From a virus (lineage: Duplodnaviria; Caudoviricetes): 64,000 bases of DNA. This document shows positions 11,162 through 58,801 of this stretch, one piece after another (within the stretch, counting starts at the first letter, position 1; every line of letters begins with the position of its first letter). The notes below the pieces were generated by a model. That model did no database searches and was not told the DNA's origin. It saw only the letters and a list, made by a program, of their open reading frames with translations. The translations under genes and the position numbers were made by a program. The stretch lies in IMG/VR virus record IMGVR_UViG_3300025735_000003, positions 21,607 to 85,606 of that record; one strand, written 5' to 3'.

Positions 11162-12076
11162 TTGAATATAATTTACTTACTAACAAACTTAGACAGAACT
11201 GAAGGCCGGAGGTTTTATGTAGGATCAAAAGCTGAATGTTTTATTGAAAATATAAACGGTATCGATAGGATTGTATCAGCAAAGACTGGACTTCCTTACT
11301 ATGGGAGTAGCTCTTGCCCTTTAATGAAAGATGATATGGCAAAAGGAGCGAGACTTTCAGCAACTATCTTAGAAGAAGTTCCTAACAAGAAACTCTTACT
11401 CGAAACAGAGGATAAGTGGATTGTTGAGCTAGATGCTGTAGAATCTCCTGAATACTATAATATTTCCTACGCTAGAATTGGTGGACACACAATCGACCAA
11501 ACCGCAATGTACAATATGTACGGAGAAACTATTGTGGGGTACGGTAAAGCAGTGTCTTCTTTGAATAAGAGACATAATACAGCCAAACGATTTGGACATA
11601 AAAACCTAGGAGAATTTTGTGTATGGATTTATAGTGAAATACTTTCAGGTAAGACGAGCGCTCAAATTGCCAGAGAGATTGGTTGGAACCGTTGGGAGCC
11701 TTACCGGTACATGAAAGACTATGATATGACTAAATGTTTGAATGAATATTGGGAAGAAGATCATGAGTTAGAAAGAGAAATTCGTCTGTTAATTGCCGAA
11801 GGTGTTTCTGCCCGAAGAATTGCAGAGCTGAAAGGGCTTGAATTACCCACCGTATGTCTGTATATTGGAGATTATGACCAAGTGCACACGAAAGCATTCT
11901 TAGTAGCTCAAAGACGTGGACAAACAAAAGAAGAACTCGAAATTCAGGTTACTAAGCGAATTCTGCAAGGTGCAGGCTTTACAGAAGTTTCCCGTGAGCT
12001 TAGTATCAATGAAACAAGTGTGAAACGATATTTCTTACGTTATGTTCGTGCAAATTTGGATCACAACAATCTTTAG
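11162..12076 (+). CDS. GIY-YIG (Seg-like) free-standing homing endonuclease with C-terminal HTH repeats
   Basis: IIYLLTN..FYVGSK; YYGSS; EDKWIVELDAVESPEYYN. Confidence 0.75.
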   Translation: MNIIYLLTNLDRTEGRRFYVGSKAECFIENINGIDRIVSAKTGLPYYGSSSCPLMKDDMAKGARLSATILEEVPNKKLLLETEDKWIVELDAVESPEYYNISYARIGGHTIDQTAMYNMYGETIVGYGKAVSSLNKRHNTAKRFGHKNLGEFCVWIYSEILSGKTSAQIAREIGWNRWEPYRYMKDYDMTKCLNEYWEEDHELEREIRLLIAEGVSARRIAELKGLELPTVCLYIGDYDQVHTKAFLVAQRRGQTKEELEIQVTKRILQGAGFTEVSRELSINETSVKRYFLRYVRANLDHNNL

Positions 12077-50638: not shown

Positions 50639-52066
50639 TTAGAAATTAAACTCGTTCATCTTTCCCAGTTGTGGGACAGAAAAAGTTGGAATATTCAGTT
50701 TCTGTGCCAAAGTAATAAAAGCATCACTTGTAGCATCGACCTGATCATCTTTGTTATTTCGAGAGCCGTCGAAACCTTCTAGCTCACTGAAATAATCCTT
50801 GTTCCATTCAGCATCAACATAATCTACAAGACCGGCTTCAGCAGCAGCAGCAAATGGTTGGAATCGGACTGTTTTGGATTTGTTAGTTGGACGCATTCTA
50901 GCGTGGAAACCTTCAGCAAGAAGATCCTTAATCATCATCTGTCCAGCAGCTTTACCAGCTTGACCGGGTTCTTGAGGGAGTAGGATATTTGTACCTTCTG
51001 GATCATTTACAGCGCATTCAATAATCTTTTGCATTACTTCGCCATAACGTGCCCTGAAACGAACAACATCAACGACAATGTAGTGTAAAGATTTTGTCTT
51101 TGCCATCAAGACGCCAACAGTCCAGTCAGGATTTGGATTCAGGTCACTGGGAAGTGTTCCTGCAATATCCCATGCTCTGCAATATGAAATAATGTTTTGT
51201 TCAAACATCTTCACAGGTTGCATCCAGTCTTTTTTTAGCATGCCCGATCCAGAGGGGCGGACAAACCAGTTCCCGTAGAGGTAGCGCTGGACATCTACAA
51301 ACGGCTTAGCCTTAAGTGTAGAAATGTAACCTCTGTCGTTCGCAAGCAATACTGGATTGTCATAGCAAGTGGCACTAATAAAAGTGAAAGTTTTAATACC
51401 ACTTTCTTCACCTTCACCATATATCGCTTCTAATTCTTTACGATCATCTGCCCAAATGTACTTACCATCTTCCACTACATAGTAGCGAGTAAGACCGTCT
51501 TTTGTTAGATCAGGCGTACCATCTTCTTGAAGATAAGGTCTAATCCAATCAAGAGCGAACCAATCTGGGTCCGGGTTGCACGTAAGCACCATTTGTTTCT
51601 TATGCTTAGCTCGTGCGGATCGAATACGAAGTCCTAGATACTCAATACACACTTGGGAGAAGTGTGTGGCTTCGTCAAATAACACAAAAGTATATTGTGC
51701 ACCTTGGTGCTGGAACCTGTTTTGATCATGTTCCATGTGAGAGAACTTAATACTACCACCTGATGGAAATGTGATCTTCAAGTGTTTTTGATTAACTTTA
51801 ATGTTCTCTTTGCCGAATACATAAGCATATAGTTCGCAAGCTGTTTCCCACAGACCCCCTTGAGCTGTAAGCTCACCGGTAGTCTTCCGAAAGATGACCC
51901 CGCGCAGATAAGGATCGTCTGCGAACTTAAGAGGATAAAGCAAAGCTACGTAACTTTTTCCTGAGCCCATTGCCCCACCTACAATAGCCGTATCATTCGA
52001 CTGATGGAGTATGAGATTTTGTTTTGGGCTACTAGGCCCTATTGCCGGTTGTTCTAAATCTTCCAT
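50639..52066 (-). CDS. terL: terminase large subunit
   Basis: GGAMGSGKS, FDEATH, CNPD, AWD, DDQVDA. Confidence 0.93.
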   Translation of the reverse strand: MEDLEQPAIGPSSPKQNLILHQSNDTAIVGGAMGSGKSYVALLYPLKFADDPYLRGVIFRKTTGELTAQGGLWETACELYAYVFGKENIKVNQKHLKITFPSGGSIKFSHMEHDQNRFQHQGAQYTFVLFDEATHFSQVCIEYLGLRIRSARAKHKKQMVLTCNPDPDWFALDWIRPYLQEDGTPDLTKDGLTRYYVVEDGKYIWADDRKELEAIYGEGEESGIKTFTFISATCYDNPVLLANDRGYISTLKAKPFVDVQRYLYGNWFVRPSGSGMLKKDWMQPVKMFEQNIISYCRAWDIAGTLPSDLNPNPDWTVGVLMAKTKSLHYIVVDVVRFRARYGEVMQKIIECAVNDPEGTNILLPQEPGQAGKAAGQMMIKDLLAEGFHARMRPTNKSKTVRFQPFAAAAEAGLVDYVDAEWNKDYFSELEGFDGSRNNKDDQVDATSDAFITLAQKLNIPTFSVPQLGKMNEFNF

Positions 52067-53140
52067 TTAAAATCCTTTAGAAAATTCTACCCACTTAGGA
52101 TCTTCTTGAGGAATCCAACCATCTAGCCATTTAAGTCTAGGGTTAGTGAAGAAAGCCAAACTAACATCATCGTTATGGGTTTGATTATAAATCTTTGTAA
52201 AAACTTTAAGTCCGGGCTTATCAAACTCTACCCAAAGATTGTAAAAGTAATCACACATGGACCACTTAGTTAAAGACTCTTCAGTCTGTGTGGCTAAATT
52301 CTCCCAAGGCTTTTGTTCTCTTGCCTTCATGGATTCTGAGATTTGTTTAAGTAGTTCGGGAGGATGAGATTTACCAAACATATGATGATCTTCTCCATAC
52401 CGCATAGATTTCATCATAATCTCACGAGTTTCCTCTGACCAACCAATACCTCTACGGGCATCACCCATCTTTTTACAATGTTCTTCTGAGAATTTAACTC
52501 CGAAAGATGGGTGATCTTCTCCGCGAAGATAGTTTCTAGTCTTAAATTTCTCTTTGGTTTCTTCTGTATGTTTCTTTCCAAAGAATGGGTTATTTTCCCC
52601 AGTATAAGTTTTGCCCAACTCAACTAGCAGACAACCGCAAGATTGTGTATTCTTAGTTGTTAGACTTCCACCCACTACAGTAATAATATTTCCACAATCA
52701 CACTGACAAAGCCATCTTACTTGTCGGCTTCCACTTGGAGATTCATAAAAGTCAGCAAGTTCTACTACAGTAAGTTTTGTAAACTTTTGTCCGACTAAAT
52801 CTTTATAAGACTTCCCTCGGCGTTTTTCAGAAACCTTCTTAGCAAAATCTTGTTTCAAAGCTTCATACAAATATGAGTTAACTTTACTAATTGCACGATT
52901 GCTCATCATCATTGCAGCGTAAGCTAGTGCGGGAACTTTTGGATAAATTTTCCAAAGTAGCATATGAGCTATGAAATGCTCACGTCCACTTAGCATTACT
53001 AGATTATCAGCTTCATTAGTTCCACCAACAGAGCGAGGAACAATATGATGAATTTCAAAGTAACCTTCATGTTGACTTTTATCAAGACCCCGAACTTTGG
53101 CTTTTTCTACAAGTGCATTATAAATATTTTCGTAATTCAA
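52067..53140 (-). CDS. HNH homing endonuclease with NUMOD3 repeats
   Basis: EIHHIVPRSVGGTNEADNLV..REHFIAH; CQCDCG..SCGC; four GKKHTEETK-like repeats. Confidence 0.85.
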   Translation of the reverse strand: MNYENIYNALVEKAKVRGLDKSQHEGYFEIHHIVPRSVGGTNEADNLVMLSGREHFIAHMLLWKIYPKVPALAYAAMMMSNRAISKVNSYLYEALKQDFAKKVSEKRRGKSYKDLVGQKFTKLTVVELADFYESPSGSRQVRWLCQCDCGNIITVVGGSLTTKNTQSCGCLLVELGKTYTGENNPFFGKKHTEETKEKFKTRNYLRGEDHPSFGVKFSEEHCKKMGDARRGIGWSEETREIMMKSMRYGEDHHMFGKSHPPELLKQISESMKAREQKPWENLATQTEESLTKWSMCDYFYNLWVEFDKPGLKVFTKIYNQTHNDDVSLAFFTNPRLKWLDGWIPQEDPKWVEFSKGF

Positions 53141-56552: not shown

Positions 56553-56639
56553 ATTGCTATCTCCCTTTAGAGATGACCCTTTGGGCCTTATTTTTATTGT
56601 GTTGTAAAGGAATACGAGATAGTACTACATACATCTACC

Positions 56640-56935
56640 ACTATAAAATAAGTACTGAATCTTCCACGCTTCCTGAAATTCAGCTCTATCCTCACAAGAT
56701 TTGAGGATCTTCTCCACTGCTCTGCACTATTCACAGAAGTCATTTTTATTAGCTAACCGCCAGATTAGCTTTCTGAATGAACTAGGCAAAGTTCTCAGAT
56801 ACCAAGCACGCAGGCTTGATTAGTTTTGTCTGTCCTTTCAGAAACGACTGGAGGCTACCAATCTTCTCAGACAAATTCTTTTCAGTAACATAAATTCAGC
56901 ACGATATCACTGCTTCTGATTTCGTGCGAGTTTCT
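56640..56935 (-). ncRNA. candidate structured RNA (about 300 nt hairpin array)
   Basis: No credible ORF; at least seven adjacent stems, with G-U pairs favouring the minus strand. Confidence 0.5.
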
Positions 56936-56937
56936 TG

Positions 56938-57345
56938 TTACTCTTCGTCTTCGTCAGGTTCAACGAACACTAACGACAAACGAGGTTTCATTTCAGCCTT
57001 GATCTGCTCAGGAGATTGCTCTTCCTCTTCAGTATCACGCTTCCCTTCAGCACGAGCTTTGAAGTTTGTAATCTCATCACTACTCGCTGCTTTTTCAACG
57101 CTTACAATGGAGTTAATGATCCACTTTGCGCTTGCAACAGATTCAGAGTTTACAGTTTCATTCTTAAGACTTTTATCAATCAAAGCAAGGGCGATATCTT
57201 CGCGTTCACGAAGCTTGTCAGCCAGTTCACGGAGTTTGCTCTTTTTGATTCGAACTTTACTATTACCGCTAACATTTCTGTTTGAACGTGGTCCATCAAA
57301 CCTTGTATCAGGTGATGGATTGCTATTCTTTGGAGTTTTAGCCAT
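56938..57345 (-). CDS. putative terminase small subunit / DNA-binding protein (135 aa from MAKTPK)
   Basis: Basic N-terminus with TRF motif, helical core, acidic tail; heads the late operon; identity is inference. Confidence 0.5.
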   Translation of the reverse strand: MAKTPKNSNPSPDTRFDGPRSNRNVSGNSKVRIKKSKLRELADKLREREDIALALIDKSLKNETVNSESVASAKWIINSIVSVEKAASSDEITNFKARAEGKRDTEEEEQSPEQIKAEMKPRLSLVFVEPDEDEE

Positions 57346-57369
57346 ATTTAAATACCTTTGAATTAATAA

Positions 57370-58036
57370 AATTCTTTCTAAAGAACACTCACAGGCAATA
57401 CCTGCAATACATAAAGATATGAGAATGTTCTGTAGAAAGCTCACTGGCACTCGGGAGAGGGCAAGTACCAATGAGTAAAGACATACTTGAGGAGAAGCAA
57501 GCTGTCTTTAAGGTCCGGCATAGGATAGGAGGAAGACGCCGGGAGGAAACATAGCATTAATAGAATTTCTTCTTAGTTGCTATGGTGAATTCGTAATCCT
57601 GTCTGGTCCGTTACAGGAGGAACGTTTCGCTTATGGAAGATACAGCCATATCACTATCTTCTTAATGGCGAACTGACACAGATGAGTATTATGGCTCTCA
57701 CCCTAGTAAGTCTTAAATAAGTACTCTGCTCACCCTCCCAACCGACATTCACTTTTGGAGGCTACGCGACCTAATAAGGTTTCGACTTATTACAAAGTCT
57801 CGTCAGGCGTGTTAAATAAGTGTGAATGCTGAATACCTACTTGCAGAGCGGTGGTATTGTACGCTCGTAAAATTAACGCTGGTGTTGTTTATCTCGTCCT
57901 TATCACGAGGTGGCAGAATCCAGCAACTGCGCATTCTTTTATACTTTCACAGAAAACAGCATTAGCCGTGTCGCTGGGGTAGAATTCTGCTTTCTTTGCC
58001 CAACCAATATTCCTTGCTCTTCAGGAGCTTTTCACA
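57370..58036 (-). ncRNA. candidate large structured RNA or leader (about 670 nt)
   Basis: Consensus promoter upstream; no credible ORF; about 13-14 stems including nested ones; pyrimidine-rich loops. Confidence 0.6.
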
Positions 58037-58042
58037 GTACCT

Positions 58043-58070
58043 ATTATACAGATTTATTCCTGAATGTCAA
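58043..58070 (-). promoter_or_regulatory. consensus sigma70 promoter
   Basis: TTGACA-N16-TATAAT. Confidence 0.85.
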
Positions 58071-58100
58071 CTAATATCTTTCATTTCGTCATAAAAGATT

Positions 58101-58277
58101 CTAACTATCTGAATCAGGCATTACTTTCTTAAAGACAGTTCCATAGTAGCTGATGGTTTCATGTTGATACTCCCAACGGAATGCACCGTCTAGGAATTCT
58201 TCCAAACTTCCATCAATATCACAACTGCAATCAATATCTTCGTTGCCACAAGAAGGGCAATAGTTTAACTCACCCAT
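58101..58277 (-). CDS. small Zn-ribbon-like protein (58 aa)
   Basis: MGELNYCPSCGNEDIDCSC; AAGGA RBS. Confidence 0.6.
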   Translation of the reverse strand: MGELNYCPSCGNEDIDCSCDIDGSLEEFLDGAFRWEYQHETISYYGTVFKKVMPDSDS

Positions 58278-58310
58278 TCTTGGGATTCCTTTAGTTAGGT
58301 CAATGAAGTA

Positions 58311-58340
58311 AGAGTATCAGTAAATTGACGTCCGTGTCAA
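58311..58340 (-). promoter_or_regulatory. sigma70-like promoter
   Basis: TTGACA-N18-TACTCT. Confidence 0.6.
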
Positions 58341-58357
58341 GTGTTTATAAAAATAAA

Positions 58358-58801
58358 TTAAATATTTCTATCAAAAGCATAATACCTATCTGATGCAACT
58401 TGTGGCGTTAGCTCTTTGGCTGCCCTCTGATAGTAACTCTTAAAGAATAACTTAGCCCGTTTCTTATCAAACCTTTCTTTCAAGAATCTCTTAGAATATT
58501 TCCAAGCAATGTACTCTTCTTTCAAAATACAATCTGTACGGAGGTGAAAAGATTCAACAGGTTCAAGACTGCAATTCTTTATACAGCGTTTGTAAATCTT
58601 ATCCCAGCGACGTAAGTGTCCAACCTCGTGCATAAAGCTATCAATGAATTTAGGATAGAAGGGGTTTATGAGAATCTTCTTGTTGTAGTTGTCAAAACTA
58701 TATACACACTCAGCACCTTTCATCCAATGAAAAGGATTCCACTTTATACCATATTTCTTGCAGACACTGATGGCTAGCAGCCAATCTTTGATTAGTTTCA
58801 T
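58358..58801 (-). CDS. putative zinc metallopeptidase (HExxH)
   Basis: FMHEVGH plus downstream EEYIAW. Confidence 0.6.
   Translation of the reverse strand: MKLIKDWLLAISVCKKYGIKWNPFHWMKGAECVYSFDNYNKKILINPFYPKFIDSFMHEVGHLRRWDKIYKRCIKNCSLEPVESFHLRTDCILKEEYIAWKYSKRFLKERFDKKRAKLFFKSYYQRAAKELTPQVASDRYYAFDRNI

Follow-up and report, generated by a model that had tools for sequence, protein, structure and literature searches.

What does a phage keep in some 690 nt of gene-free DNA between a strong promoter and the first gene behind it? The question is raised by an uncultured phage whose minus strand carries such a gap, ending at an ATG at position 57345 of the window, as we call the whole stretch of 64,000 nt that was analysed. 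The large terminase of this phage shares ~43% identity with its counterparts in Pseudomonas phages of roughly 95 kb, and a blastn search with the region found no match among 50,697 records of cultured phages. An earlier note on the same DNA had proposed one ornate non-coding RNA of about 670 nt, or else a very long leader of the following operon. Our analysis favours a different answer: with a probability of roughly three in four, the gap is a slot for stable RNAs, filled by a mosaic of four pieces, namely a leader, a knotted RNA with a hammerhead ribozyme in it, a spacer and an array of five hairpins.

The promoter (58043..58070, minus strand) consists of TTGACA at 58070-58065, a 16-nt spacer and TATAAT at 58048-58043, and its match to the sigma-70 consensus is complete (12/12), exactly as the earlier note had it. 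Such a promoter would place the transcription start near 58036. The sister phages L005 and L006 have a homologue of the promoter (93-96% identity) ahead of their tRNA-Asn and tRNA-Thr. Co-oriented structural genes, extending over more than 20 kb, lie downstream of the gap. The first downstream gene (56938..57345, minus strand) encodes 135 aa behind a weak AAAGG ribosome site. Its former label, TerS-like, had to be dropped: the product has no Pfam or PHROG match and no similarity to the real TerS used for comparison, which is encoded in L135 after the same knotted RNA as that described below.

Two further features of the neighbourhood deserve mention. A homing-endonuclease gene of 357 aa (phrog_655, E 2e-59; 52067-53140, minus strand) immediately precedes the gene for the large terminase (50639-52066), in which the terminase profile match begins at profile position 145; the idea of a TerL split around the endonuclease gene was rejected, the ORF further upstream having no terminase match. 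A second non-coding gap follows the 135-aa gene (56553-56937, minus strand). It scores z -3.1 on the minus and -2.4 on the plus strand against shuffles and has GUAGCCUCCA and AGUACUUAUUU in common with the knot module, the model of which found no match when run on it.

Taken as a whole, the region between promoter and ATG reaches a minimum free energy of -203.5 kcal/mol on the minus strand (z -4.8 against shuffles), and the plus strand scores z -1.2. Together with many G-U pairs and compensatory changes that preserve pairing, this asymmetry bears out the claim of strand-specific selection at the RNA level. It also makes it extremely unlikely that the gap serves as a DNA-level element (a pac or cos site, an origin, a recombination hotspot). 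Non-coding DNA before packaging genes often harbours pac or cos sites, and among relatives a mosaic junction falls in this region, but the preserved RNA pairing speaks against such elements, and the terminal repeat is elsewhere, as 127 bp at the contig ends of the 85.6-kb IMG/VR record, whose bases 21607-85606 make up the window. The same low probability applies to a run of translated micro-ORFs. No credible ORF stands behind the promoter, as had been noticed before; the longest one up to the ATG has 40 aa and overlaps the covarying ribozyme.

To locate the folding signal, the stretch was split at boundaries suggested by homology, with 100 dinucleotide shuffles per piece. The excess of stability is concentrated in piece D (57590-57346, minus strand; z -9.5, while the opposite strand reaches -2.8) and present more weakly in the hammerhead/knot piece (57871-57715, minus strand; z -2.6), while piece A (58036-57872, minus strand; z -1.6, 6/100 shuffles being as stable) and piece C (57714-57591, minus strand; z -1.2) fold like shuffled sequence. 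Most of the stems that had been listed as standing wall to wall can indeed be drawn, but the folding signal is confined to the knot piece and D. Evidently, a strong folding score of a whole region can conceal a mosaic of unrelated modules.

The modules are also separable in other phages. Relatives were fetched via neighbouring genes and proved mosaic in this region. Hammerhead and knot occur without the hairpin array in L095, L135, L137, L145, L146, L148, L150, L151 and L153; conversely, L010, L138, L140, L139 and L142 have the array but no knot. In L018 the order is knot, tRNA-Pro, tRNA-Leu, module D. Since the modules occur apart and tRNAs can intervene, we regard the gap as a composite stable-RNA and leader locus and not as one ornate RNA.

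Could the gap nevertheless encode a single large RNA of ~670 nt, acting in trans and comparable in its single fold to GOLLD or ROOL? The minus-strand-only score of the whole region would fit such an RNA, and so would its position, because GOLLD and ROOL are often found near tRNAs (PMC5737381) and the region is a tRNA slot. However, only two modules supply the folding signal, they separate elsewhere and admit tRNAs between them, A and C are without homologues apart from the short part of A treated below, and no conserved long-range pairs between modules were found. The comparison with GOLLD, ROOL or phi29 pRNA did not hold either, there being no Rfam 15 match to these families at E up to 10 in 56800-58600. 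We therefore judge a single RNA very unlikely. What survives of the earlier proposal is a non-coding region with conserved structure, which is in part the leader of the next gene; the undivided 670-nt molecule does not.

The catalytic centre of the mosaic is a type I hammerhead domain (57764..57810, minus strand), the core letters of which are invariant in 12/12 aligned sequences, only N7 alternating between C and U. Along the minus strand, stem I (ACGC/GCGU, 57810-07 with 57767-64) leads to the core CUGACGA (57806-00; C3-U4-G5-A6-N7-G8-A9), stem II (GACUU/AAGUC, 57799-95 with 57788-84), the core GAAA (57783-80), which includes G12-A13-A14, stem III (CCU/AGG, 57779-77 with 57772-70) and finally U16.1 and C17 (57769-68) of the GUC cleavage triplet. 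Stem I is open; stems II and III are closed by loops. The A15.1-U16.1 pair is present in 12/12 sequences and H17, read from the aligned homologues, is C, A or U, never G. Compensated on both sides are 2/4 pairs of stem I, 7/8 of distal stem I, 4/5 of stem II and 3/4 of stem III. The conserved core, the A15.1-U16.1 pair with its non-G H17 and three covarying helices together place the domain in type I.

The chemistry of hammerhead cleavage is established, and the hammerhead numbering puts the predicted self-cleavage site at 57767..57768 (minus strand), after C57768 (GUC/G). The predicted products are a 5' piece of ~269 nt, counted from the presumed start, and a 3' piece that begins with a 5'-OH at G57767. 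Stem III has 3 bp in this copy and 1-2 bp in some homologues; hammerheads with a stem III so short can require dimers or extra contacts. A pseudoknot between loop II and stem I, of the Perreault type, was considered and rejected, the complementarity (by eye) being limited to three near-identical copies and absent from distant ones.

The hammerhead also settles two stems of the earlier note, which had paired CAUUCAC with GUGAAUG around UAAUAAG/CUUAUUA. The outer stem covaries; in the hammerhead it forms the distal part of stem I. The inner one is contradicted: its bases form the covarying stems II and III, and the sequences of L095, L135 and L146, read directly, offer no matching complement.

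At gathering threshold, Rfam assigns no family in the whole window. Its best approaches are Hammerhead_3 with 26 bits (E 0.009, against a gathering threshold of 48.5) and, in L018 and L019, Hammerhead_HH9 with 23.4 bits (threshold 52). The Rfam hammerhead models seem poorly suited to the type I forms of phages, since a hairpin-validated type I pattern match in L041 went unreported by Rfam. A generic pattern retrieved 74 other viral type I hammerheads, all hairpin-validated, which share with ours the flanks CGC-CUGAYGAG...CGAAAC...GUC-GCG; CGC precedes CUGA in 74/74, though the pattern does not demand it. Type I architecture is thus common in viral contigs. In loci retrieved by this pattern, other ribozymes score above the Rfam thresholds (twister-P5, twister-sister and type II hammerhead, at L041 1370-1423, L034 556-626 and 1081-1152, and L098 1246-1309), which makes L041, L034 and L098 ribozyme-rich phage regions.

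The hammerhead does not stand alone. Pattern scans of IMG/VR and JGI metagenomes, in which GAAA, UH and the stems were not required, returned 11 distinct homologues, and the resulting alignment of 12 sequences delimits a double-pseudoknot RNA of ~136 nt (57723..57858, minus strand) with the ribozyme built in. Its elements follow each other in the order c', P1 5' strand, AAGUA, c, a, hammerhead, b, a', b', GGUGA, P1 3' strand. Helix c'/c (57858-53 with 57837-32) encloses the 5' strand of the closing helix P1 (57849-43 with 57729-23); a/a' (57829-22 with 57752-45) is the distal stem I; hairpin b/b' (57761-57 with 57738-34) encloses a' and is thereby knotted with distal stem I. Twice, then, a hairpin loop pairs with a distant strand, giving two interlocked pseudoknots, and all four helices covary. 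The stretches AAGUAGG and GGUGAGC are invariant.

How firmly do the sequences support this fold? In the nested helices together with b/b', 95.6% of the alignment cells are paired, as against 30-40% in slid controls, and 22/33 pairs have changed on both sides, a count equalled in 0/500 shuffles. Helix c'/c is paired in 98.6% of cells, with 3/6 pairs compensatory. The alignment is model-based, and b/b' and c/c' lie outside that model, so that their pair counts are not biased by the fit. RNAalifold alone recovers P1, a/a' (distal stem I), stem I and stem III. By nearest-neighbour energies, this copy has its minimum (-43.8 kcal/mol) in a fold other than the conserved one, which reaches -28.7 kcal/mol with pseudoknots uncounted; this calls for caution wherever a structure is read from folding energy alone.

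On this comparative evidence the hammerhead/knot module is a real RNA under selection, and conservation with compensatory changes across distant phages leads to the same conclusion for module D. Neither matches an Rfam 15 family at threshold or was found in the literature searched; both are short enough for direct biochemical tests. The covariation in homologues that the earlier note expected is present in both modules and absent from its GAGCG/CGCUC stem, which does not rise above controls; nor does the use of this 5' hairpin as a switch against P1. Its stem GCAGAAU/AUUCUGC, enclosing CCAGCGAC/GUUGCUGG, is incomplete in L013 and L018, which retain the 3' arm without the 5' arm.

Several further candidates came to nothing. 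Knot anchors run against 185,579 species genomes in search of prophage copies gave two matches, both of them false positives in coding sequence; the metagenome matches L149 and L152 are rejected by the covariance model; and the sole extra match within this genome (15 bits) lies, judged by eye, inside an endonuclease-type coding sequence. A K-turn reading of AAGUAGG/GGUGA misfits the consensus by eye. For a form without the hammerhead, the conserved anchors spaced by a 30-60-nt interval had 0 matches in IMG/VR. By eye, a possible hammerhead-less half-knot was seen in L142 around 11420-11500 (minus strand), ~50-120 nt upstream of its module D: a hairpin GUGUACC/GGUACAU whose loop segment GUUCUGG can pair with CCAGAAC just downstream.

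The genomic surroundings of the modules give the slot its character. L011 has six tRNAs in it and L012 four, and in L010 and L004 a tRNA-Thr directly precedes the module D homologue. (At L011 6716-6778, within the 1.7 kb that separate tRNA-Gly from five further tRNAs, there is also a sub-threshold match to YrlA, a Y RNA-like RNA, with 39 bits and E 4e-5.) The knot module is upstream of tRNAs in L018 and L153, while L151 has it within an array of five tRNAs, flanked by tRNA-Tyr and tRNA-Ser; it behaves there like a gene of the array. Our phage itself is without a tRNA gene, both within the window and across the entire 85.6 kb of the genome (ARAGORN and Rfam RF00005).

Is the knot, then, a device for processing tRNAs? 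Five complete or near-complete sister genomes bear on this. The carriers of the module, G000 and G001, are complete ~86-kb genomes without tRNA genes, and the three sister genomes that do have tRNAs (1, 2 and 6 in the same slot) are without the knot module. The retention of the knot in two complete genomes devoid of any tRNA gene is new here; it argues against a role in tRNA processing or maturation as such, tRNA trimming being disfavoured for the same reason, and favours a function that belongs to the knotted RNA as such.

Other neighbours of the knot are the small-terminase gene (L135), tail-fibre-region genes (L013 and L146) and an intrinsic terminator that follows it directly (L095, L137 and L150). 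These positions bear on another explanation, by which the gap is a cis-acting leader that alters RNA polymerase or termination in the late operon, like HK022 put or Bacillus EAR, with the knot, the array or both conferring resistance to terminators or Rho. An untranslated RNA of 690 nt would otherwise be open to Rho, the leader would immediately follow a strong promoter and precede over 20 kb of structural genes in the same orientation, and knot homologues precede TerS, tail-fibre genes and tRNA arrays. Against this, the knots that run straight into a terminator have no operon to serve. A device that, like put, would act while tethered to polymerase also sits uneasily with a ribozyme that cuts the nascent transcript within the element. 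On balance we hold an antitermination leader to be unlikely.

Not all of the gap carries a structure of this kind. Segment A, the 5' leader (57872..58036, minus strand; 165 nt), gives no hint of structure under selection. Recurrence is limited to its last 68 nt, which the closest relatives share at 97% identity and alongside the knot; this shared part belongs to one recent recombination block. Segment C, the spacer (57591..57722, minus strand; about 130 nt), occupies the place where L018 has tRNA-Pro and tRNA-Leu. Neither ARAGORN nor the Rfam tRNA model detects a tRNA in it, and it has no homologue among about 210 fetched loci. By eye, two of its hairpin loops, 57696-57690 and 57650-57644 (minus strand), are complementary over 7 nt (AGCCAUA/UAUGGCU), and a kissing contact between them is possible. 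A viral scan for this loop-loop motif returned 58 matches, approximately the chance expectation and none similar to C. Segments A and C make up ~40% of the length and have neither significant folding nor homologues beyond the 68 nt of A. They may be filler or decayed sequence.

Decay has also been considered for the gap as a whole, as the remains of a tRNA array consisting of non-functional debris and a selfish ribozyme. The slot holds 1 to 6 tRNA genes in sister genomes and none here, and the shuffle-like folding of A and C and their isolation are what debris would look like. But no tRNA remnant appears in Rfam even at E 10, and debris does not account for the knot and module D, which have been conserved with compensatory changes across distant phages. 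Decay would therefore hold for A and C only, and even so we consider it possible rather than probable. The preferred reading remains the mosaic stable-RNA slot, in which two of four pieces are under selection.

The second maintained piece, module D (57374..57584, minus strand), is an array of five hairpins: H0 (57584-50), H1 (57542-15, loop CUUCCUCCUAUCCU), H2 (57510-476, loop CUUCUCCU), H3 (57475-40, loop CCCUCUCC) and H4 (57439-374), all on the minus strand. The same plan is found in 8 phage loci. Here the earlier reading by eye was accurate: its stems CAUAGCA/UGCUAUG, CCGGCG/UGCCGG and UAAAGACA/UGUCUUUA, and those at 57440-57475 and 57374-57439, recur in the 8 loci with differing stem sequences. 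By RNAalifold, 20/41 pairs are compensatory, in H0, H3 and H4. The loops of H1-H3 carry a CUCUCCU-like, anti-Shine-Dalgarno-like motif in 24/24 cases across the 8 loci, on stems that are unrelated. Module D lies upstream of the 135-aa gene family in five loci (its homologues come after the array in L010, L138, L140 and L142) and of a tail-fibre gene in two. The AAAGG site of the gene next to it is a poor partner for CUCUCCU loops, so that a cis role of module D is not evident. As a possible phage RNA with three mimics of the ribosomal RNA tail on display, the array is a clean candidate and lends itself to tests.

From what the analysis demonstrates, namely the promoter match, the modular make-up, the covarying folds and the intact ribozyme core, we infer how the locus might operate: the start at 58036, real self-cleavage, what becomes of the pieces and what the loops do. 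Transcription would begin at the consensus promoter, and the strongly promoted untranslated stretch would read into the structural genes. The hammerhead would cut the nascent RNA after C57768 and detach the promoter-proximal ~269 nt. This 5' piece would end in a 2',3'-cyclic phosphate; the RNA beyond the cut would carry a 5'-OH, with the b/b' hairpin following immediately. P1, a/a' and stem I, ~19 base pairs in total, could hold the two knot halves together. Further along, the three middle loops of module D would present CUCUCCU as a mimic of the anti-Shine-Dalgarno tail of 16S rRNA, and might find their partners in ribosome sites of the AGGAG type or else in a protein.

Going one step further, we suggest, tentatively and with less than even odds, that the knot is more than a scaffold for the ribozyme and functions as an RNA by itself, nicking itself into a two-piece, nuclease-resistant particle, which acts on the transcription or RNA-decay machinery where late or tRNA operons begin, or as an anti-defence decoy, and that module D is a multivalent anti-Shine-Dalgarno RNA reprogramming translation. 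If this were true, the knot particle and the three-loop array would be new classes of RNA in many uncultured phages.

How do these elements compare with known systems? GOLLD, ROOL and phi29 pRNA resemble the region in being phage-associated non-coding RNAs. The region differs from them in that no covariance model matches, a phi29-type packaging context is lacking, and the fold is modular: one conserved fold does not span the whole RNA, 2/4 segments being without homologues. T4 species 1 and 2 are stable RNAs in a tRNA cluster, and the knot module is like them a non-tRNA RNA in phage tRNA clusters. Theta (HDV-like) ribozymes, which adjoin phage tRNAs and have been proposed to trim tRNA 3' trailers (bioRxiv 10.1101/2023.06.13.544163), share with it the presence of a self-cleaving RNA in a phage tRNA cluster. 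They are, however, a different ribozyme class, and the knot module persists in phages that have no tRNAs.

For module D, the closest parallel is ar14/NfeR1 (RF02344; PMC10746234), a group of alpha-proteobacterial sRNAs with three hairpins and a shared anti-Shine-Dalgarno loop motif. Both display the same kind of pyrimidine-rich, anti-Shine-Dalgarno-like loop on three hairpins with unrelated stems. The motif is CUCUCCU here and not CCUCCUCCC, and the Rfam ar14 model gives hairpins 2 and 3 20.5 bits (E 0.37), far under its threshold of 58.8. Moreover, ar14 is a free-standing bacterial sRNA gene, whereas module D lies in a phage mRNA leader and has two flanking conserved hairpins. By its loops, the likeness reads as functional analogy and not as family membership; that of S. 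aureus RNAIII to module D is looser.

Hammerheads are known from phages, where they cut long transcripts (Perreault et al. 2011, PMC3088659). The type I hammerheads of phages and prophages (PMC3088659; Rfam clan CL00010) have the same full core, three helices, open stem I and GUC triplet as ours, and likewise lie between genes within long transcripts of the phage. Ours differs in the large internal loop of stem I and the very short stem III, in scoring below all Rfam hammerhead thresholds and in its frequent location in a tRNA-array slot. It is also embedded in a larger structure: here the ribozyme is an integral part of a strongly conserved double pseudoknot, set where phages keep their stable RNAs.
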